From: a virus
Direction: 5' to 3' (one strand)
Length of the DNA stretch: 64,000 nucleotides
IMG/VR virus record: IMGVR_UViG_3300035670_000060
Location: 49,654 to 113,653 of that record
Made by a program: the position numbers and the translations under genes. The notes under the pieces are model-generated. The model worked only from the letters and a program-made list of their open reading frames with translations. It searched no databases and was not told the DNA's origin. This document shows positions 618 through 50,426 of the stretch, in pieces (position 1 is the stretch's first letter; every line of letters begins with the position of its first letter).

Positions 618-2261
618 TTATAATCTGAAGAAGTCTTTTTCTCGCCTTTCCAAGTCTCTATCTATTTCCCAAAGTTGACCGGAACCATCAACAATTCTAT
701 CTTCATCGTGGCCATCATTAATAATTCCAAATGGAGTGACTTCATCCTCGATTGCTTTCATTCTTTGTTCGTACAATTCTTTTCTTATATTGGTATTTGT
801 TAGTTCTTTAAAATATGGATTGGTTGTAAGCCAAGAAAAGAGCACCAGTGGCATGACTAAATCATCATGATAGCCTTCGTCTGCACTGTAACTATTTTTT
901 CGTTCAATAAATGTTGAAATTTCCGCAATGGTATCCGCATCTTGAATCAGCATTTTCTTGCCTTCAACAAGCGATTTAAAATTCATACAGCCAATCCGTT
1001 TGACTTTTTTATCTGTATTCACGCCCAATTGTGTCTTACCACCACCAAATCCACCCGAAACAACTTGACCCTGTGGTGTTCGATTGACGAATATAATGTT
1101 CTCATATTCATATTCACTATGTAGAATTTCTGCTACTTGCTCTGAAGTGTTGGTTTCAATGAGTACCCAAGCACTGTTATATTCTTTAGCAACTTTATAA
1201 ATCATAGAAGGGTATAATAGTGGACTGATTGTATTGTCTCTGAATTTACCAACTTGACGATAAGGCATTTCAGTTACATCAAGCACTGTAAATGCTGAAT
1301 AGTCTCCACCGACACCTTTTGCAACATCGGCAACCAACACATAAGAATGATCACGTTCTACTTTATCATAAACATCTAAACCATCTTTACTGTAAATTGG
1401 ACTACCTGCTGACATCTGTGCTATAGAATCTGCATCAATTAATGTCAGACTTGATCCTAAGAATGCACAAAGAATCTCTTGGTTAAACTTAAGATTACCC
1501 AACTGTCTACGCTGTTCTTCAGCCCATTTCTCATCACGCCCAGGTATCTTCCAGTATGGTATAAACAATGGTACAAAATCGTTTCTCTTCTTTTCAGCAT
1601 CGTTCCAGAATTTCCAGAAGTGGTTGTATCCAAGAGGTGTAGAAGATAGTAGAATTTTGGTTGTAGAACCAGCAGAAATGGTTGGTGAAACTGCTGTAAA
1701 GAATTCTTCTGCTATATTATTTGGTATAATTGCTGTTTCGTCAACATACAATAAATTAACAGACTTACCACGAATACCCTGGCGACTTGTTGCTGCTGTG
1801 AAAACAATCGATCCATTTTCAAGTGCAATGTCACCTTTGTTCCATGTCTTGACGCCTTGCTGCAACCATTGCGGAAGGTGTTCGTACATAAGTTGATAAC
1901 GTGATAAAACTTCTCTTGCTGCTGTTGCTTTGTTTGCAAGGATTGCTACAGTTTTGCTGCCCTGAAAAAGTGTGTACCAAAGAATATATGCAGCCGAAGT
2001 TGTAGTCTTTCCTTGCTGCCGTGGCTCCATCAGAATGACTTTCCGGTTGTTATGGATTATATCCAGTTTTTCTTTCTGACAATCGTAAAGATTGAACGGC
2101 TGCAAACCATAATCTAATGTTACAATTTTACAATATTTTTCAATAAAGTAAATGTAATCCTCTGAACACTTAATATATTCTTCGATGTTCTCTTTTGTAA
2201 ACGGTACTGAAACACCCGCTGCTTTGAGGAGCGGATTTCCTAAATAAATTTTCTTAGCCAT
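618..2261 (-). CDS. gp17: Terminase large subunit
   Basis: YLGNPLLK start, PRQQGKTT Walker A, LLYVDE Walker B, STPLGYNHF, DVAKGVGGDYS and HDDLVM nuclease motifs. Confidence 0.97.
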   Translation of the reverse strand: MAKKIYLGNPLLKAAGVSVPFTKENIEEYIKCSEDYIYFIEKYCKIVTLDYGLQPFNLYDCQKEKLDIIHNNRKVILMEPRQQGKTTTSAAYILWYTLFQGSKTVAILANKATAAREVLSRYQLMYEHLPQWLQQGVKTWNKGDIALENGSIVFTAATSRQGIRGKSVNLLYVDETAIIPNNIAEEFFTAVSPTISAGSTTKILLSSTPLGYNHFWKFWNDAEKKRNDFVPLFIPYWKIPGRDEKWAEEQRRQLGNLKFNQEILCAFLGSSLTLIDADSIAQMSAGSPIYSKDGLDVYDKVERDHSYVLVADVAKGVGGDYSAFTVLDVTEMPYRQVGKFRDNTISPLLYPSMIYKVAKEYNSAWVLIETNTSEQVAEILHSEYEYENIIFVNRTPQGQVVSGGFGGGKTQLGVNTDKKVKRIGCMNFKSLVEGKKMLIQDADTIAEISTFIERKNSYSADEGYHDDLVMPLVLFSWLTTNPYFKELTNTNIRKELYEQRMKAIEDEVTPFGIINDGHDEDRIVDGSGQLWEIDRDLERREKDFFRL

Positions 2262-2661
2262 TACCTTTGAGCAATTTCTGTAACTCTGCTGTACTACCTA
2301 CAAATAAAGCGTTGGTTACATGACTTGGTTGCTTGTCTTCTTCTTTGTGTTTGATTTCTTTGACTTTCTTAGAAAGTTCTAATAAATCTTTATTTGTTTC
2401 TGCTAATGTTTTGATAAGTTGACCGACAACTTCAAATGCTCTTGGAGATTCTACGTCTTTGGCCAAATAAAGAGCATCTTCCATAGCCTCTTTACCACGT
2501 TCAATAAAATGGCGAAGATTGTCCCGAGCATATTCAAAATCATCGTCAATAGAATCATTCTGTTTTTCCATAATAGATGCGACAGGATATTCTTTAGGGC
2601 TATTTTCAATATAAGGTATATCCAATGCATCGCTTAATTTTTTGTCTACGGGAGTTTTCAT
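2254..2661 (-). CDS. gp16: Terminase small subunit
   Basis: DFEYARDNL, SPRAFEVVGQLIK, NALFVGSTAELQKLLK motifs; adjacent to gp17. Confidence 0.93.
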   Translation of the reverse strand: MKTPVDKKLSDALDIPYIENSPKEYPVASIMEKQNDSIDDDFEYARDNLRHFIERGKEAMEDALYLAKDVESPRAFEVVGQLIKTLAETNKDLLELSKKVKEIKHKEEDKQPSHVTNALFVGSTAELQKLLKGNG

Positions 2662-3404
2662 GGTGTTGTCAATGTTGTTGAAAATCCAAAATCGGAGTTT
2701 GAAACTATGGATGTTGTACTTACGAGTGCTGGTTCTGTTACGCTTTTTGAATCATTCTTAATGTTAATTGTAGCATTACCGATATATCTATTTGTTGTAA
2801 CTGGTCCAAATAAGTATCCTTTTACGACAAATGATAAGTCCCAACTAATGATTCTGCGAGAATCAAAATCTCCTTCGTATGTATCTTCGGAAGAAATTGA
2901 TAAAAGTTCTATAGGAATGTCCATATTCAGCGACAGACTTGGCAAAACTTTCATCGTAACAGTGAAATCTGGTGCAAAAAATGGTATAATTTTTTCTATA
3001 ATTTGCGTTCCGTCTTCAGCATTTCTTACCAACGCACTCAGTGTAAAATTCATATCGTAAGGAACTGGAGAATATACGCTTGTAAAGTTTATTGCATCAG
3101 GATTTAAATTCTTTTTTATCTTAAATCCGGTGTTTAATTTTCTTGCTGGAGCATAAGTTATACCGTTCATTTCAAATCCTAATCGTGGAAGTTGTGTGCT
3201 AAATTGTTCTCTTCCGATTTGAGGATCAGTTGTAACTCTACGAATAAATTTTTGTTTTGGTCCATATTCTATAGGAACATTCACGTTTTGTATGACGCTC
3301 CCATTTGAATCATATCGCTCAACTTGAATTTCATTGAAGATATTTCCAAACATTATAATATATCGACGTAGCGTGCCGTGATAGAAATCATGACCGAATA
3401 TCAT
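2658..3404 (-). CDS. gp15: Tail sheath stabilizer / tail terminator
   Basis: FYHGTLRRYIIMFGNIFN, VPIEYGPKQKF, LPRLGFEM, PVPYDMNFTL motifs; gp13-14-15 synteny. Confidence 0.93.
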   Translation of the reverse strand: MIFGHDFYHGTLRRYIIMFGNIFNEIQVERYDSNGSVIQNVNVPIEYGPKQKFIRRVTTDPQIGREQFSTQLPRLGFEMNGITYAPARKLNTGFKIKKNLNPDAINFTSVYSPVPYDMNFTLSALVRNAEDGTQIIEKIIPFFAPDFTVTMKVLPSLSLNMDIPIELLSISSEDTYEGDFDSRRIISWDLSFVVKGYLFGPVTTNRYIGNATINIKNDSKSVTEPALVSTTSIVSNSDFGFSTTLTTP

Positions 3405-4250
3405 TTACCACTCCTTAGTTGAAGCAAATGGATTCGCTTCGCTAAAATCTAAAATGTCATCATCATTAATTTGTGATGTAATGAAATCATTATCTGCTGT
3501 ATTTGCTCTATTTTCAAAGAAATATCCTTCTAGTAGAATACTACTTAAATCTTGATGGACTAATTTATATCCATCTTCCATTAACAATTCATCAAGGACA
3601 TTTGTAGCGAGACTGTAGGAGTCTTCGATTTCGTCAATGTCTGAAACGTCAGTATCAATAACTTCTGCTGAGTAATCAAATCTATCACATCGTAATTCGT
3701 ATGTATATGTTTTACCTAATTGAAAAAAGTATTCATTATCTTCACAAAATTTAATTTCATACATTGATTTTACCAAAGGCAACCAAATTAAGTCACCCTC
3801 TCTTGGTCTGTAGATACCTGAATAATCGTAATCTGAGTTTTTTCTGCCATCTATCTGTGATAGTTCTTCATCTTGAAACAGCAATTCATTACCATCTTCA
3901 AGCAAAAGATTGTAATTATATTCCGTCATGAGGCATGGTTTCATTGCCTGTTGAAATCTTTTTTGCGGCAATGAAAATGTAATTTGTTCATCGACTTGCA
4001 AACCAAACTTTGATATGAAATCCAATTGACCTTGAAAGCCGTCAAATGTTTTAATATACATTTCAAGTTCTATAGCATCATCAAAATACATTGAACCATC
4101 TTCGCCATAAAGTTTGTCAAGATTGACATGTGTTCTTGGTAAATAATAAGCTGGTACACCATAAATCTTTATAGCTTCAATAATCAAATCTTCATAAACA
4201 TTTTGTTCAGTGGATGTTGAATATTGATTGAAGTGCCTATTTCGTGCCAT
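3405..4250 (-). CDS. gp14: Neck protein
   Basis: EQNVYEDLIIEAIKIYG..YYLPR, RPREGDLIWLP, FFQLGKTY, ILDFSEANPF. Confidence 0.93.
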   Translation of the reverse strand: MARNRHFNQYSTSTEQNVYEDLIIEAIKIYGVPAYYLPRTHVNLDKLYGEDGSMYFDDAIELEMYIKTFDGFQGQLDFISKFGLQVDEQITFSLPQKRFQQAMKPCLMTEYNYNLLLEDGNELLFQDEELSQIDGRKNSDYDYSGIYRPREGDLIWLPLVKSMYEIKFCEDNEYFFQLGKTYTYELRCDRFDYSAEVIDTDVSDIDEIEDSYSLATNVLDELLMEDGYKLVHQDLSSILLEGYFFENRANTADNDFITSQINDDDILDFSEANPFASTKEW

Positions 4251-4252
4251 GA

Positions 4253-4996
4253 TTATCCAATCATATCAGATACAGGTAATGAATATGAAGATATCATCTC
4301 AGCTTCTAATGCTGTTATTTCATCTGTTGCTTCATCCCAAATTTTTTGACCGTTGAATGTCAGACCACCCGGCATTTGGAGACCTTCAAACTTTTTTAAA
4401 TTTTCGCCCCACTGTTTTTTAATTTGTGCTGTTGCATATCGTTGAAGCCATCTGTCACCCCATACATCTGAGTATGTATCAGGATCCACTTTCTGGTATG
4501 CTTCAATAATAATATATTCGCCAGTCACAACTTTTGCTGACCAATCCATATCGATATAAAGTCTGTTTACATGGCGATTATATCTGAGACTTTGGCGCCC
4601 AACAAAAAGTTCTTCAGCAAGCGCAACATTCTGAAGTGCCATGTAGTATGGTGCGAAAGGTCCATAATTGAATGCAAACAGATCGTTCAGTGCGATTTGA
4701 TATCGAATGTTGAACAGATTGTTTGAAGAATAAGAGTCACCAATATCAAATATATTAATGATACCAATGACTGCTTCTGGAATGGTTATGTATTTGTTTG
4801 TCTTGTCTTCAGCAGTGACTGGATGTGCTAAATAAACTTTCTGTGTACCATCAAAATGATAATCGTGATAATACGCTAATGCTTCGTCAATTCTATCTTC
4901 AACTTGTTCATCCGCTACATTAATTTCAAGTACAGGTTTCCCTAACTTACGTAAGCAATATTCTTTAAATTCATCTCTACTGGTAGGTTTAGCCAT
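4253..4996 (-). CDS. gp13: Neck protein
   Basis: EYCLRKLGKPVLEINV, WLQRYATAQIKKQWGENLKKFEG..PGG. Confidence 0.95.
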   Translation of the reverse strand: MAKPTSRDEFKEYCLRKLGKPVLEINVADEQVEDRIDEALAYYHDYHFDGTQKVYLAHPVTAEDKTNKYITIPEAVIGIINIFDIGDSYSSNNLFNIRYQIALNDLFAFNYGPFAPYYMALQNVALAEELFVGRQSLRYNRHVNRLYIDMDWSAKVVTGEYIIIEAYQKVDPDTYSDVWGDRWLQRYATAQIKKQWGENLKKFEGLQMPGGLTFNGQKIWDEATDEITALEAEMISSYSLPVSDMIG

Positions 4997-5032: not shown

Positions 5033-5245
5033 TTAACAGATTAGTGCTTTGCCATCAATCAATAGTAAATTGCCTTTGCATGCCAGATTCCATTTTTTTA
5101 CACCATGCTCGTAAGTACATTCGTCATACACGGGCACGTTGATTTCTAAACTTTTAGCTAAGACTTCTTCGCCATTTTCAAAAATTCTCCAGAAAAAATC
5201 AGTGTCGCCGTGCTGTGTATTAAATCGAATATGGTATTGCTTCAT
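5033..5245 (-). CDS. Hypothetical protein, last gene of sulfo/glyco operon
   Basis: 70-aa ORF coupled (ATGA) to upstream gene. Confidence 0.7.
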   Translation of the reverse strand: MKQYHIRFNTQHGDTDFFWRIFENGEEVLAKSLEINVPVYDECTYEHGVKKWNLACKGNLLLIDGKALIC

Positions 5246-6078
5246 TCAATTCCCATTTCTTTTCGAATTTTGGTTGCTGAAATAGCATGTATCGTATCAT
5301 CGAAAACTTCTTGTTCAATCTTGTAGCCGACATCTCTACCGTATGTGATGTTTACAATGTTTGGAACAATCAAAATTTCATACTGACCTTGATAGAGTGG
5401 ATCTAAGTCTCTTCGAATATAGTTTTTAACTTCTTCAATTGCAAATGGATTACTTCCATTCCAACCCTGACAATCACGAATCATGATACATACTTGACCA
5501 GTTTTTGCTAACGCTCTTTCAAATAACGCACGATGACCTTTGTGCCATGGTTGCCAACGACCTAACATCTGCACAGTTTCTTTGCGCCAATCAAAAGTTG
5601 GTCTTCTTTTACGACTTAAAATTGCTTCACCTACATACTGCACCCACTTTTCAGCATTCTTTTCGTTGATTCTAAAATCATAGATTTCTGGTGGCACAAA
5701 TGCTTTGTTCGTATCTTCATAACGACCAGCATCAATCGTATCCATCCAGATTGTCCAGTCTGCTTTAAAGTTGTGACGCATTTCAGCAAGTGGTGCTACA
5801 AAATCACAAATGACATATTCGCCAGTGCATCGCATTGCAAATTCTGCCATCCTCAACGACTGCCGAATGCGACCTTCTTTTGAAAAGTCCCAATCATTGA
5901 ATCGCTTTCGAATGTCATCAGCATTGAACCAATCAACTCGTGCGTTCATTCGAGGATATGGAGCGTCACTAAGTGTGTTTAAAGGACGCTCTCCGTGAAT
6001 CTCAAGATAAGTCTTTAATCGTTCTGCAAAATATGTTTTACCTGAGCCAGGCAAACCCATAATCAATATTTTTTCCAT
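5242..6078 (-). CDS. Adenylylsulfate-kinase-like domain fused to HIGH-family nucleotidyltransferase (putative minimal PAPS synthase)
   Basis: GLPGSGKT P-loop, NADDIRK, DFSKEGRIRQ, ICDFVAP (CysC-like); C-terminal GRWQPWHKGH and ISATKIR motifs; start may be 6078 or 6093. Confidence 0.75.
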   Translation of the reverse strand: MEKILIMGLPGSGKTYFAERLKTYLEIHGERPLNTLSDAPYPRMNARVDWFNADDIRKRFNDWDFSKEGRIRQSLRMAEFAMRCTGEYVICDFVAPLAEMRHNFKADWTIWMDTIDAGRYEDTNKAFVPPEIYDFRINEKNAEKWVQYVGEAILSRKRRPTFDWRKETVQMLGRWQPWHKGHRALFERALAKTGQVCIMIRDCQGWNGSNPFAIEEVKNYIRRDLDPLYQGQYEILIVPNIVNITYGRDVGYKIEQEVFDDTIHAISATKIRKEMGIE

Positions 6079-6095
6079 TATATAAAACTCCAAAA

Positions 6096-6341
6096 TTATT
6101 GAGCGATTGCTGCACTTCCCTGAGTGATTGCGTTATGCAAATCAGAAATGTCTTCGCCAGATCCGGACACATCTGGATTTCCAACTACTAGTTTAAGATG
6201 CTCAACATTTCGATCAATGTTTCCACGAAGTTCGTCAGAAAGTGTTGCGCCTGCTGCAATCTTTGCTAAAGAATCTTCAATGACCCAAACGCTATCTCTT
6301 GCTGCTCGAATTGTATATAGAACTTCTGGTGTTGCTGGCAT
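6096..6341 (-). CDS. Hypothetical protein (DSV..RNVEHL motif, possibly fibre-associated)
   Basis: 81-aa ORF with SD GGAGG. Confidence 0.7.
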   Translation of the reverse strand: MPATPEVLYTIRAARDSVWVIEDSLAKIAAGATLSDELRGNIDRNVEHLKLVVGNPDVSGSGEDISDLHNAITQGSAAIAQ

Positions 6342-6342
6342 A

Positions 6343-7293
6343 TTAGCCTCCTATGAGTTTAGTATCTTCGGTTTCTGTTGGTGCATCCGATTCGGATGTT
6401 GGTTCTTCAAAATTTGCGTCAATCTCTTGTAGATTTCTCCAAAATGCTGTATTTTCACATCGCTTTAAAATTTCTTCTGAAAGAACTTCTTTAGGATCGA
6501 CTGACGCTCTATTTATTGTACTACGAACTTCATGCATGTCTGCAAGCCCATAAACTTCAGCATCTTTTTCTTTATGTATGTTTTCAATTTTGCTAAAGTC
6601 ATGTGCGAAATATTCTTCACCAAGAAATTCATAAATCTTTCGCATTGTATCATCTGGATTCTCAAGCAAATCGTTATATTCAATGAAGTGAAGATTTTTC
6701 TGTCTACCTTCCATTAGTGCTTGTTGAATGCCAAAATAGCTTTGGCCAAGAATTCCATTTGGACTAGCTAAGAACGTACATCGATTATCATCGTTTAAAG
6801 GCGTGTTTGTTTTGATAAGCATTTCATCAATGAAATTAATCTTACCTTCACCGCCGTATGGATTTCTGCGTTGCATTGTAATAAATGATGTAAGAATTTC
6901 TTCAATGTCACGAACTGGGCATAAAACTTTTGGTTCAATTCCAAAATATCCAGGAATGTAATGTAGTCGATTCACCCATGACCGATTCTTGTCAATGATG
7001 ACAGGCTTATCTACGTCAGAATAATAATTATCCATGACACTAGAAATAATTTTTGCAGCTTGTGGTAACTTAGGAAAAGCCATAAAAAGTTCATCGTTTG
7101 AAAAAGAATTTTCAAGCGTGAGCATTGTAGGTACCACAGGAGAACTTGGACCAGAATAGACTCTTGGATTTTGATTTAGAATCGATGATAGAAGTGTACT
7201 TCCTGATCTTGGAAGCCCAGACATAAAGTAGTATGTCTTCATTGACGCTCTCATCATTTCTTCTCTTATAATTTCTTTAATCATTTCTTTCAT
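6343..7293 (-). CDS. Sulfotransferase family protein
   Basis: SGLPRSGSTLL PAPS-binding loop, IIDKNRSW, CPVRDIEEILTS, FIEYNDLLENP..MRKIYEFLG. Confidence 0.9.
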   Translation of the reverse strand: MKEMIKEIIREEMMRASMKTYYFMSGLPRSGSTLLSSILNQNPRVYSGPSSPVVPTMLTLENSFSNDELFMAFPKLPQAAKIISSVMDNYYSDVDKPVIIDKNRSWVNRLHYIPGYFGIEPKVLCPVRDIEEILTSFITMQRRNPYGGEGKINFIDEMLIKTNTPLNDDNRCTFLASPNGILGQSYFGIQQALMEGRQKNLHFIEYNDLLENPDDTMRKIYEFLGEEYFAHDFSKIENIHKEKDAEVYGLADMHEVRSTINRASVDPKEVLSEEILKRCENTAFWRNLQEIDANFEEPTSESDAPTETEDTKLIGG

Positions 7294-7304
7294 TGTTCAT
7301 CACC

Positions 7305-8207
7305 TCATTGTTGATTGTTTACAGATTCTATAATTTTATTTATATCAAATAATTTAACGTCATCTGTATAAGGATATTCAATTTCATTTCCGTTGAAGTC
7401 AAAGTCAAATAAGTAACTGCCAGGAAGTTTGAAGTTATATGGCACATCGGTACAAATATTATCATGCATATCATAACCAAAAACTTTAGGGCTTGTACCA
7501 TTCCATAAAACAGTGGATTTCTTTCTAAGTGCTGCTGCTGCATGTTGCAACGAAGAGTCTATAAGAATTCTCTTTTTGCTATGTAAAAGAATACTAAAAA
7601 ATTCCATTAGACTGAGTGCTTGTTGCTGCGTAGCAAAAACATGTTCAGCGCCTTCAAGTTTTGGTGAGTTCATCTTGGTAACTTGGTAAATATGATAGTC
7701 TTTTTTGTAATAGTCTATCAATTCTTGTGCTAATTCTGGCGGCATGTCTCTTGTCCATGAATAAGGCTTAGCATCTGTTGTCATTGGACCGCCACTTGTA
7801 TGTATAACCATGATAGGCTTTTTTCTCAACCAAAATTTTCTTGAAAGATCCCATTGAAGTTTATTAAACTTTACCTCTGGGCGCTCATTGTCGAATTTTA
7901 ATTGATGCATTTCGCACCAATTTTCAATCAGTCGTTTCCGTTTATGTATATGATTTGTCGTATAGTATGGTTCGTGATGAAAAATCAGAGAATCTTTATC
8001 TTGAATGTATTCTTGGTAGAAATATTGTGTGCCACCTAACAGAAAAACTCTGTCAACAAAAGAAAGATTAATAAAAATATCAGGATATGCACATACGACA
8101 ATGAGTTTTCTGTCAGGAAAATTGTTTTTAATTGCTTTTGCAACAGCGGTTGCTGCTACGTGTTTTCCAATACCGCCTTGAAGATGAAAAATACTATATT
8201 TCTTCAT
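7305..8207 (-). CDS. GT9-like (heptosyltransferase-fold) glycosyltransferase
   Basis: N-terminal GGIGKH..ATAVAKAIK..FPD and C-terminal IDSSLQHAAAALRKKSTVLW, matching the GT9 DSG.MH.AAA motif. Confidence 0.75.
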   Translation of the reverse strand: MKKYSIFHLQGGIGKHVAATAVAKAIKNNFPDRKLIVVCAYPDIFINLSFVDRVFLLGGTQYFYQEYIQDKDSLIFHHEPYYTTNHIHKRKRLIENWCEMHQLKFDNERPEVKFNKLQWDLSRKFWLRKKPIMVIHTSGGPMTTDAKPYSWTRDMPPELAQELIDYYKKDYHIYQVTKMNSPKLEGAEHVFATQQQALSLMEFFSILLHSKKRILIDSSLQHAAAALRKKSTVLWNGTSPKVFGYDMHDNICTDVPYNFKLPGSYLFDFDFNGNEIEYPYTDDVKLFDINKIIESVNNQQ

Positions 8208-8208
8208 A

Positions 8209-8937
8209 TTATAACCTTTCTTTTGTTGCTTTCACGATGTCCCACGTTCTCGCATTTTTGATATGATGAAAATGATATGCATTACTTGCGTCTAAAGCTA
8301 GTCTTTTAGTTATGTCATAATTTTTATGCTCTGAAACAAGCGTTTTTGATATCTCACCTTTGATCCTATTCGTCTTGAATATGTATATATGTTCGTTGTT
8401 CTGCGTCAGATATTCATCACCGAACCAGATTTGATATAGTCTTGGTATCACCTTATACGAAGTTCGCTTTATAAACATACATACACCAAATGCATATCCT
8501 TGACCACCTATAGGTTGAGTTTTATCATGTTTGAGTTTGAACAATTCATCTTCACCTTCATGAACACCAACTGTATAATTATCTGGTGTGTTTTTTAAAT
8601 GAACGCCTACAACATCAATCTCTTTAAAATCTACTGCTGAGAAATCACGAAATACACTCGATTCAACTTCTATGTCATCATTGATAATGGAAAGAACATT
8701 CGCTTTTGATCTATAGTAACCTTCATTCCACGAAGGATTTACGTAGTTGTTTTTACCATAACAAATGATATGCAACTTAGATGAATTCAATTCGTCAACT
8801 CTTTTTGGTCGATTTGCTTTGTCATTGTCAATCAAAAAGATATTTCCAATATACTCGCATTCAATGTAGGTGTCAAGTGCGGATAGAAAATTTTTAGACT
8901 TCCACATTGTAGGAATTACAACGTCAATTGTATTCAT
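8209..8937 (-). CDS. GT2-family glycosyltransferase
   Basis: IDVVIPTMW, FLIDND, NYVNPSWNEG, IINDDI, WFGDE. Confidence 0.8.
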   Translation of the reverse strand: MNTIDVVIPTMWKSKNFLSALDTYIECEYIGNIFLIDNDKANRPKRVDELNSSKLHIICYGKNNYVNPSWNEGYYRSKANVLSIINDDIEVESSVFRDFSAVDFKEIDVVGVHLKNTPDNYTVGVHEGEDELFKLKHDKTQPIGGQGYAFGVCMFIKRTSYKVIPRLYQIWFGDEYLTQNNEHIYIFKTNRIKGEISKTLVSEHKNYDITKRLALDASNAYHFHHIKNARTWDIVKATKERL

Positions 8938-9596
8938 AAATCTTCTATGTTATAATTTTTCATTGTCGATTCAAAATTACCTTTATACATCTTATTGCCT
9001 AAATGGTAAACTGTATGATTCGGTTTGATCCAGATTTTGTAACCGAGTTCTCGAATCTTATTTGAAAGTGTAATATCTTCACCAACAAAAGCTCCGTTTA
9101 TGTATGTAAATTCACATATGTTTTTTAATTTCTTACTACGAAAATCTAATTCAACATTAGAGATCCATAAATCTTTAATGACTTTTTTGGAAAGTTTTAG
9201 AAAGCCTGTTCCTACACGAGATGCTGTCAGATAACCATCTTTCGGATCTCTCTTGACCACACTGTTAAAATAAACGTTATACTGTATATTTGTATCACCT
9301 TTATTTACAACTGGTATAGCGATGACATCTTTTGGTGAAGAAAGAATTTCAATCAATGCTTTCTCATCCCACATTTCATCATCGTCAATGAATACCATTG
9401 CATCATAATTTTCTTTGTATGCTAAATTAAAGAGTTCATTTCTGGCCATTGGAAGAATACTTTCATTGGCCAGAAACACTACATTGATTGACAAATCGTG
9501 TTTCAATCCTAACTTAATAGATTCACATAAACTATGAACGAAATATGCGTCTACTTTTTGATCTAAACATGGTGTAGCAATTAATATACGTTTCAT
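8934..9596 (-). CDS. GT-A fold glycosyltransferase-like protein
   Basis: ILIATP, SILPMARNEL, MVFIDDD, VGTGFLKL, GEDITLS, VYHLG. Confidence 0.75.
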   Translation of the reverse strand: MKRILIATPCLDQKVDAYFVHSLCESIKLGLKHDLSINVVFLANESILPMARNELFNLAYKENYDAMVFIDDDEMWDEKALIEILSSPKDVIAIPVVNKGDTNIQYNVYFNSVVKRDPKDGYLTASRVGTGFLKLSKKVIKDLWISNVELDFRSKKLKNICEFTYINGAFVGEDITLSNKIRELGYKIWIKPNHTVYHLGNKMYKGNFESTMKNYNIEDL

Positions 9597-49495: not shown

Positions 49496-50426
49496 TTCCG
49501 TTTACCAATCCGTCGTATTGTTTTAAAAGTGTGTTTATATTCCACATTGTATAATATTTTTCAATAGGTGTCAAGCCTTTTGCTACGATTTCTTTTATTG
49601 GTGTTTTTTCAATATTAATGTCATCACTAATAATATGCCTAAAAAAATTTGATGTGTTTACACCGATAGGTTTTCTTGCTGACAAGGCTCTATCTGTTGA
49701 TCCACTGACACCAACGGCGTCAAAATGCTCATAAAAGTAAATGTTTATATCGTTACCATTTAACCACTTGATTAAATCATACTCAGAAAATTTTTCAATT
49801 GTGTATATAATTTCGACGTTTTTTTTCGCTAACTTTTTACACTGTTCTATAAGATTGATGATACCTTGATCCTTAAGAGGAGTATAAAATCCTGGAGAAA
49901 AATGGACATTTAATTTCACATATTCGTCAAATTGTTGGTTTATAATTTTTATAATTGTTGGTAAATTTTTATTATGTTGTCCGATACCGCTTGTTCCTAT
50001 CGTCAATATATCACTCGGAGGAAAATATTGAATGTCGTCATATATAACAACTGGTCTAACTCCTGGATGAACTTTTTCGGTGTCTGGTGCAGTCACATCA
50101 ATCGTTATATAATGTTCTAGATTATAAAAATGTCGAGTTTCAAATCTACCTTCGTGTCCAATAATCATAAACTGTCTAATCGAAGTGTTATCAATTGTTG
50201 ATTGAGTTAACCATCGCATAGTTGATGGATGCCAATTGTAAATGACTAAATCAAGATTGTATTCTTGAATCAGTTTTTTCATTTCGATTTCGCTATCACA
50301 TGTAAGTAATATGTATCGATTTTGGTTCGACTGTTTCAACATATTATGCAAATTTCTTGCATAATAATATATGCCACAATCTTGCTTTGATCCTGTAAGT
50401 ATGCCAACAATTTTCATTTTTTCCAT
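49479..50426 (-). CDS. Glycosyltransferase-like (GT-B) protein
   Basis: CGIYYYA, IGTSG...KN, GVSGSTDRALSARKPI. Confidence 0.65.
   Translation of the reverse strand: MEKMKIVGILTGSKQDCGIYYYARNLHNMLKQSNQNRYILLTCDSEIEMKKLIQEYNLDLVIYNWHPSTMRWLTQSTIDNTSIRQFMIIGHEGRFETRHFYNLEHYITIDVTAPDTEKVHPGVRPVVIYDDIQYFPPSDILTIGTSGIGQHNKNLPTIIKIINQQFDEYVKLNVHFSPGFYTPLKDQGIINLIEQCKKLAKKNVEIIYTIEKFSEYDLIKWLNGNDINIYFYEHFDAVGVSGSTDRALSARKPIGVNTSNFFRHIISDDINIEKTPIKEIVAKGLTPIEKYYTMWNINTLLKQYDGLVNGNEISH

Follow-up and report, generated by a model that had tools for sequence, protein, structure and literature searches.

A 278-residue phage fusion of a divergent APS kinase and a NadM-like nucleotidyltransferase is a candidate minimal PAPS synthase

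Introduction

What reaction is carried out by a phage protein that joins a kinase to a nucleotidyltransferase of only ~115 residues and is encoded near a sulfotransferase? The question is raised by a gene in a stretch of 64,000 nucleotides of viral DNA, positions 49,654 to 113,653 of the IMG/VR record IMGVR_UViG_3300035670_000060, that is called the window here. In an earlier sequence-only reading the gene was taken to encode a possible minimal bifunctional synthase of 3'-phosphoadenosine 5'-phosphosulfate (PAPS), in which a CysC-like kinase is followed by a stripped ATP sulfurylase and the product is fed to the neighbouring sulfotransferase. That interpretation is partly supported by the present analysis: as far as can be judged from genomes the function is right, and the ancestry is wrong. 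The fusion gene probably encodes a compact bifunctional PAPS synthase, to judge from its sequence and its genomic associations, and this synthase would be built on an ATP sulfurylase derived from NadM.

A literature search found no description of this kinase/nucleotidyltransferase family. The public names of its members are 'cytidyltransferase', 'phosphopantetheine adenylyltransferase', 'AAA family ATPase', 'adenylylsulfate kinase' and 'hypothetical'. Atlas clusters are labelled just 'cytidyltransferase', much as the sequence-only reading had expected, and the IMG label for relatives includes 'phosphopantetheine adenylyltransferase'. The features discussed below are collected in Table 1.

The fusion gene and its kinase domain

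The open reading frame (ORF) spans 5242-6093 on the minus strand and had been read as a gene of ~280 codons. The ORF is real, but the start has to be moved, and the gene runs from 5242 to 6078. The TTG at 6093 falls within the ribosome-binding region. The true start is most likely the ATG at 6078, because a GGAG lies 9 nt upstream of it and the homologues are 278 aa long and are covered to 100% from MEKIL onward. A chance ORF is excluded, and a real gene confirmed, by the more than 8000 cluster representatives that resemble the fusion protein and by an AlphaFold2 (AF2) model in which two domains are predicted with a mean confidence (pLDDT) of 92.6.

The N-terminal domain (N-domain) is, by Pfam score and fold, a divergent kinase of adenosine 5'-phosphosulfate (APS) that has no canonical lid, and the call of a CysC-like kinase holds. 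It matches Pfam APS_kinase (PF01583) with 28.7 bits against a gathering cut-off of 21.1 (E 1.6e-6), and of the 152 profile positions only 5-93 are matched, which lie in the first ~60%. In a Foldseek search of the PDB the top ~40 matches of the structural model are, with hardly an exception, APS kinases or PAPSS1, and single-domain APS-kinase chains are matched with a TM(target) of 0.55-0.74 and E-values of 1e-6 to 3e-5. The N-domain was aligned with other members of the family, 41 in all, including P0243 and P0266, which have canonical APS kinase domains. In this alignment the P-loop is nearly invariant. The counterpart of the APS-kinase motif DGDN(V/I)R is NADDIR, in which Asn stands at the first Asp; D54 and R57 are conserved and D54 is nearly invariant. 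Residues D54, R57, F65, R70 and Q73 correspond to the DGDN-R...F...R...N positions in P0243 and P0266, Q73 being a conservative change from the Asn of canonical APS kinase. We take the R...F...R...N positions that follow the DGDN motif to be those that bind APS in APS kinase structures.

Descent of the C-terminal domain

The C-terminal domain (C-domain) has ~115 residues and starts straight after the kinase. Both of the motifs named in the sequence-only reading, RWQPWHKGH (residues 174-182) and ISATKIR (266-272), are present. The first had been likened to an RNP.H.GH motif of ATP sulfurylase, and this motif is not present; GRWQPWHKGH is the signature of NadM and archaeal adenylyltransferases of nicotinamide mononucleotide (NMN), the NMNATs, and is of the GRFQPFHxGH type. 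The corresponding loop of the canonical ATP sulfurylase, Sat, is QxRNxxHxxH (PMC3779200).

Database searches point to the same relatives. With the C-domain as a single sequence, Francisella NadM (2qjt) was found at 4.8e-4, and also MJ0541. With a family profile searched against the PDB, NMNATs were found at 6.5e-13 to 1e-9 (1f9a 6.5e-13; 2qjt 1.2e-12), and phosphopantetheine adenylyltransferases (PPATs) at E-values no better than 2e-3; among the matches at E<=10 there was no ATP sulfurylase. A Pfam scan of the fusion protein gave no match to the Sat family PF01747 at E<=1. Three NCBIfam models, NF002243, TIGR01527 and NF003786, score 26-30 bits against cut-offs of 127-397, the best E-value being that of NF003786 at 2.8e-7. 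One relative, P0123, has a weak PF01747 match (1.1e-3) that was discounted, as this protein contains an internal duplication of the domain.

The comparison of structures with Sat and with animal PAPS synthases, which the sequence-only reading had proposed as a check, came out differently for the whole protein and for the C-domain. PAPSS1 is the top Foldseek match of the whole model, with 286 alignment columns, more than the 278 residues of the model. For the C-domain alone there is nothing at E<=1e-3 and no ATP sulfurylase among the top 50; the weaker matches are to NMNAT, PPAT and PanC. The VIA-wide fold scores are Z 9.7 for PPAT, 9.7 for NadM, 9.1 for MjNMNAT and 8.4 for Sat of T. thermophilus (1v47_B, root mean square deviation (rmsd) 3.5 over 116 aligned residues), and 5.7-6.3 for the remaining Sat structures; as 1v47_B lies within about 1 Z, these scores cannot tell NMNAT, PPAT and Sat apart.

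The C-domain departs from the NMNATs in length and in sequence. The NMNAT alignment covers the first ~75 residues only; it stops at residue 76 of 1f9a and resumes at residue 110. The NMNATs have 168-181 aa, and what lies in them between strand 3 and the ISxT helix has shrunk in the C-domain to ~25 residues with an invariant YGR(D/G)VGY. An invariant Arg, R201, stands in place of the Gly that ends strand 2 in NMNATs (the 'GIGS' strand end). By sequence, the C-domain is a pared-down NadM-like adenylyltransferase with a putatively remodelled acceptor site, and not a Sat homologue. Its description as a stripped ATP sulfurylase was rejected: Pfam and NCBIfam, the profile search of the PDB, which finds NadM and not Sat, and hhalign show nothing past the HxGH region.

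A total of 67 sequences was compared, and one set of invariant residues holds across phage members, members linked to apr genes and members fused to APS kinase. The set consists of G173, R174, Q176, P177, H179, G181, H182, R201, N210, P211, P239 and N240, and of Y246, G247, R248, V250, G251, Y252, I266, S267, T269 and R272. Because the same residues are kept in all three groups, one common activity would be the simplest reading. The Y-G-R-(D/G)-V-G-Y loop stands at a place that in topology matches that of the GRD loop of Sat, and may be its counterpart.

Genomic links to APS

The genomic evidence that connects the domain with the synthesis or use of APS is of four independent kinds: the fusions of the domain, its neighbourhoods in phages, its setting in SAR11 genomes, and its distribution in SAR86 together with its complementarity to CysD and Sat.

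A library-wide search for relatives of the domain found 1208. They take the form of the phage-type fusion, of stand-alone proteins of ~115-130 aa, and of fusions with a full-length canonical APS kinase in both orders. In the canonical fusions PF01583 is matched at 5.9e-48 in P0266, where the kinase comes first, at 4.9e-37 in P0243, and at 5.7e-63 in P0148, where the kinase comes second. In a quick tree the phage clade has 99% support and lies inside a clade with SAR11 and SAR86 genes that has 97% support. In two further relatives, P0145 and P0150, pieces of chorismate synthase or of 3-dehydroquinate synthase are joined to the domain. Both proteins are probably chimeras of gene calling or assembly, though they may reflect adjacency to shikimate genes.

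Among 80 related loci in IMG/VR, 47 have one or two sulfotransferases on the same strand within 6 kb. These sulfotransferases are diverse (25-71% identity). The loci that have none show mixed neighbours, among them GT2, GTP cyclohydrolase I, a clamp loader and others. Some of the sulfotransferase ORFs are ~570-590 aa long and are apparently fused to another domain (L004:1-1803, L053:921-2693, L058:3669-5384, L065:1480-3252 and L075/L078:3843-5612); ORFs of 500-700 aa are also found in SAR11 and SAR86.

Cellular genomes were examined in a SAR11 set of 151 and a SAR86 set of 75, each genome being at least 80% complete. In the counts NT denotes the nucleotidyltransferase (C-) domain, Kin the short kinase and ST a sulfotransferase. 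The NT domain is common on Pelagibacteraceae chromosomes, mostly as a split pair of Kin (135-141 aa) and NT (124-135 aa). It is present in 95/151 SAR11 genomes, and AprA in 81/151; 79 of the 81 AprA-positive genomes have NT. When G159, which is unpublished and positive for both, is left out, the tallies are 94/150, 80/150 and 78/80. At least 30 SAR11 genomes have NT on the strand of aprA and 1.4-4 kb upstream of it. In locus L156 the gene order is CADD, a stand-alone NT with no kinase, aprM, aprB, aprA, a 116-aa ORF and a TauE-like gene. In A. vinosum, sat leads a co-transcribed sat-aprMBA operon (PMC3779200), and the apr-linked NT of SAR11 sits in the slot that sat holds there. Canonical Sat was found in only 6/151 SAR11 genomes, in line with the statement in the literature that 'most SAR11 lack ATP sulfurylase' (PMC10356861). 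The association of NT with ST across SAR11 genomes is modest: NT is found in 40/51 genomes with ST and in 55/100 without.

The apr cluster (L156:2095-7887, also L153 and L155) encodes an AprM that is QmoC-like and a TauE-like membrane protein. The run from CADD through NT and aprMBA to the TauE-like gene may be a complete module from sulfite to sulfate export. SAR11 genomes with NT and no AprA (G011, G023, G051, G056, G066, G082, G092, G102, G132 and G158) mostly have NT in a fused form of 257-289 aa; these fused copies may be derived from phages or lie on co-binned phage contigs. Pelagibacter HIMB1495 has, besides the Kin next to NT, a canonical APS kinase domain (4.1e-35) in a 369-aa ORF on its second contig (G006:C2:22609-23049).

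In the 75 SAR86 genomes a sulfotransferase was found in 73, NT in 68, Sat in none and CysD in one, and the one with CysD (G170) is NT-negative. On one complete SAR86 chromosome there are two sulfotransferases with strong matches as well as a Kin/NT pair, and no Sat, CysD, AprA or canonical CysC was found on it. Over both sets, all eight CysD-positive genomes (7 SAR11, 1 SAR86) are without NT, which is otherwise found in 163/226. CysD is present in 5 of the 11 SAR11 genomes that have ST and no NT, and in one of these (G098) it directly adjoins the sulfotransferase match. A further SAR86 protein of ~260 aa with an N-terminal CTP_transf_like domain is encoded ~6 kb from the Kin/NT pair (G007:C1:1163771-1164007).

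Proposed activity

From genomics we infer that both domains are catalytically active, that sulfate is the substrate, and in which direction the reactions run. The function given in the sequence-only reading, a bifunctional PAPS synthase that feeds the sulfotransferase, is strongly though indirectly favoured by fusions, linkage and complementarity with CysD and Sat, all of them genomic lines of argument, and only the descent from Sat is lost. In the proposed mechanism the C-domain would catalyze ATP + sulfate <-> APS + pyrophosphate (PPi), and its HxGH and ISxTxxR motifs would bind ATP as they do across the HIGH nucleotidyltransferases. Sulfate, a small anion, would stand where NMNATs bind their bulky acceptor NMN, and it is proposed that the acceptor-binding segment was lost for this reason. 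The invariant R201 and R248 are candidates for the anion site. APS would be passed to the fused kinase and converted to PAPS at once, so that the unfavourable first step may be pulled forward by the consumption of APS. The PAPS would then be used by the phage sulfotransferase, which is encoded two genes upstream. The apr-linked genes of SAR11 would run in the reverse direction, APS + PPi -> ATP + sulfate.

Stand-alone and split forms of the domain would be non-orthologous replacements for Sat or CysDN in SAR11 and SAR86. We lean, by a little, towards a broader proposal: that the ~115-aa domain is a third, previously unrecognised evolutionary form of ATP sulfurylase; that with the lid-less kinase it makes the smallest known PAPS synthase (278 aa); and that, alone or split, it is the 'missing Sat' of SAR11, which completes AprBA-dependent sulfite oxidation, and the only source of PAPS for the sulfotransferases of SAR86.

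Several observations weigh against assigning these activities. For the C-domain, HxGH is present without Q-x-R-N, the stretch reading L-G-R-W-Q-P-W-H-K-G-H, and the GxxKxxD mobile loop and N-terminal PUA-like domain of Sat are absent. The Asp of 'GRD' is replaced by Gly in SAR11 and SAR86 members. DSSP assigns only three regular strands to the C-domain in the AF2 model. In both sequence and structure NMNAT and PPAT come closest to the domain, and hhalign of the family with six Sat sequences, drawn from SAR11-family genomes, gave a probability of 20% over 39 columns that take in the HxGH surroundings only. For the N-domain, a lid segment of ~25 residues (the R-D-x-K-G-L-Y region of P0266) is deleted in the window protein and in most relatives. 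The NADx variant of DGDN is found in 75/80 viral and 64/68 cellular sequences of the phage/SAR11/SAR86 clade, and in human PAPSS1 a change of either Asp of DGDN to Ala abolishes activity (PMC8528679). Because of the deleted lid and the Asn at the first Asp, APS kinase activity of the N-domain is likely but not certain. As for context, no sulfotransferase was detected in some phages that carry the fusion, namely a 383-kb record (CheckV 100% complete), Bhz60 and DLP_6, and among the best 80 cellular loci only one has a sulfotransferase within 8 kb. The co-occurrence counts ignore phylogeny and come from incomplete genomes.

Alternative activities

Could the domain carry out some other nucleotidyl transfer in sulfur metabolism, such as APS + Pi -> ADP + sulfate, or act with another oxyanion or with a nucleotide other than ATP? 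The company of APS kinase, AprBA and sulfotransferase ties the domain to APS and leaves the exact reaction unfixed. HIGH-superfamily enzymes, however, typically release or consume PPi at the alpha-phosphate, and this chemistry is established for the superfamily. APS kinase and AprBA both need the adenine nucleotide APS, and the complementarity with CysD favours the same net reaction. Such a transfer keeps some plausibility but is unlikely.

The kinase could also be the only catalytic part, acting on APS made by the host, with the C-domain as a nucleotide-binding module for regulation or oligomerisation. There is a precedent in fungal ATP sulfurylase, in which an APS kinase-like domain serves as such a module; moreover, the C-domain is unusually small, has few regular strands in the model, and is without the sulfate-binding motifs of Sat. 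A purely regulatory C-domain is nonetheless unlikely, because HxGH, ISxTxxR and further Arg residues are invariant in all of the sequences compared and because the domain occurs without a kinase directly upstream of aprMBA. SAR86, too, has sulfotransferases and neither Sat nor CysD as a source of APS. Taken as a whole, this explanation is improbable.

A role in the salvage of nicotinamide adenine dinucleotide (NAD) is suggested by the descent of the domain. An NMN or nicotinic acid mononucleotide adenylyltransferase would be paired with a P-loop nicotinamide-riboside kinase, as in NadR but in the reverse order, and would rebuild NAD+ during infection. The best sequence matches and the GRWQPWHKGH signature fit this, and of 5 genomes searched for NadD at 1e-10, 3 gave no match. 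The likeness to NMNATs, however, fails beyond the first ~75 residues, the NCBIfam scores are far under their cut-offs, and the kinase resembles APS kinases and not the riboside kinase of NadR. One SAR86 genome without NT, G170, likewise has no NadD match, and SAR86 has another CTP_transf_like protein of ~370 aa, with or without NT. NAD salvage also leaves the fusions to APS kinase, the linkage to aprMBA and sulfotransferases, and the exclusion of CysD unexplained, and we regard it as very improbable.

The weakest alternative, a phosphopantetheine or flavin mononucleotide adenylyltransferase, is suggested by the IMG label and by the joint-top fold score of PPAT, but it is hardly credible: canonical CoaD is found above cut-off elsewhere in all 5 genomes tested, which excludes a housekeeping PPAT role, the profile match to PPATs is poor, and there is no rationale for the fusions to APS kinase or the linkage to apr.

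Phage setting and neighbouring genes

The source of the window is a T4-like aquatic myophage. Its TerL is only ~50% identical to that of pelagimyophages, Melnitz phages and cyanomyophages. The sulfotransferase that had been noted beside the fusion gene is borne out by Pfam, and its relatives in S-SKS1 carry the annotation sulfotransferase. Neither canonical Sat nor CysD/CysH was found in the phage record (113 kb, 63% complete). For the three genes upstream of the sulfotransferase an assignment as glycosyltransferases was rejected: the only Pfam match among them, to GT9 and below threshold (E 0.026), is that of 7305-8207. The sulfation gene run is directly preceded by the S74 fibre gene, whose product is a candidate target of modification. 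Downstream, a 70-aa ORF at 5033-5245 on the minus strand begins with an ATG that shares bases with the stop codon of the fusion gene (ATGA); this ORF has no family match, and a relative was found in only one of the 80 related loci (L025).

A different setting is seen in Sano-like siphophages, as in Stenotrophomonas phage Bhz60 (L001, 1187-6385). In these the gene of the fusion homologue (35-40% identity) follows a NADAR-domain gene and precedes a DNA methyltransferase, and genes for a MazG-like pyrophosphatase and a 'cysteine dioxygenase' are found upstream. The Bhz60 genome in which no sulfotransferase was detected has 56 kb.

Table 1. Positions of the fusion gene, its domains and motifs, and the neighbouring genes in the window
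Feature	Position	Strand	Remarks
Large and small terminase, gp15, gp14, gp13	618-4996	-	
Kinase-nucleotidyltransferase fusion gene, candidate minimal PAPS synthase	5242..6078	-	278 aa + stop
C-domain, residues ~165-278	5245..5586	-	Minimal HIGH-superfamily nucleotidyltransferase of NadM-like origin; proposed sulfate adenylyltransferase
ISATKIR, residues 266-272	5263..5283	-	ISxTxxR phosphate-binding motif of HIGH nucleotidyltransferases
YGRDVGY, residues 246-252	5323..5343	-	Family-specific invariant Y-G-R-(D/G)-V-G-Y loop after fourth strand position
GRWQPWHKGH, residues 173-182	5533..5562	-	HxGH nucleotide-binding motif; invariant in family
N-domain, residues 1-157, divergent APS kinase	5608..6078	-	PF01583, Foldseek, alignment with canonical APS kinase fusions
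NADDIR, residues 52-57	5908..5925	-	Counterpart of APS-kinase DGDN(V/I)R
Walker A P-loop GLPGSGKT, residues 8-15	6034..6057	-	Nearly invariant in 41-member family alignment
GGAG ribosome-binding site	6088..6091	-	Upstream of ATG at 6078; direct reading
81-aa ORF between sulfotransferase and fusion gene	6096..6341	-	No family match; syntenic in many related loci
PAPS-dependent sulfotransferase, presumed user of product	6343..7293	-	Pfam Sulfotransfer_3 8e-15, Sulfotransfer_1 1.5e-11; PHROG 27463
Three co-oriented upstream genes	7305..9596	-	Synteny in related loci; no above-threshold family match
Fibre protein, 1509 aa	9657-14186	-	C-terminal Peptidase_S74 intramolecular chaperone domain

Comparison with known systems and significance

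The animal enzymes PAPSS1 and PAPSS2 likewise carry, on a single chain, an N-terminal APS kinase and after it an adenylyltransferase of the HxGH type. They differ in that PAPSS has ~620 aa and a Sat-homologous sulfurylase with a PUA-like domain and HNGH and GRD loops, whereas the second domain of the phage protein is small and NadM-like. PAPSS1 superposes on the phage model with an rmsd of 16.7, which indicates a different arrangement of the domains. In bacterial fusions of Sat and CysC, such as that of Aquifex aeolicus (2gks), sulfate activation and APS kinase are also joined, and the order in P0148 is similar. However, the sulfurylase of the Aquifex fusion is a canonical Sat of ~380 aa, unlike the NT domain.

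By its predicted fold the C-domain belongs, like Sat (PF01747), to the HIGH superfamily. Both contain HxxH, the last helix of each bears an Arg, and the C-domain has a candidate for the G-R-(D) loop that follows strand four in Sat; the position of sat upstream of aprMBA is also taken by relatives of the phage domain. The C-domain nevertheless has no significant similarity to Sat, is about one third of its size, and is without QxRN, GxxKxxD, the PUA-like domain I and the C-terminal domain. CysDN would carry out the same net reaction, and its distribution and that of NT are mutually exclusive in the SAR11 and SAR86 genomes searched. CysD, however, is an ATP pyrophosphatase of the PP-loop type that is coupled with the GTPase CysN; its fold is unrelated to the C-domain, and there is no GTPase here. 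The closest in sequence and fold are NadM and archaeal NMNAT, which have GR(F/W)QP(F/W)HxGH, the NP loop and ISxTxIR in common with the C-domain. The C-domain differs from them in its YGR(D/G)VGY, R201 and shortened segment, and its genomic context is sulfur metabolism and not NAD.

If the proposed activity is true, a known reaction, that of ATP sulfurylase, would have a new enzyme family, as a case of non-orthologous displacement, and a single-chain PAPS synthase of 278 aa would be attractive for the regeneration of PAPS in biocatalysis. SAR11, in which a single cluster at 90% identity has 11,617 member sequences, would gain a missing step of marine sulfur cycling. The supply of PAPS to the near-universal sulfotransferases of SAR86, which has neither Sat nor CysDN as a rule, would be explained. 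T4-like aquatic phages would carry a self-sufficient sulfation module beside their fibre and neck genes.

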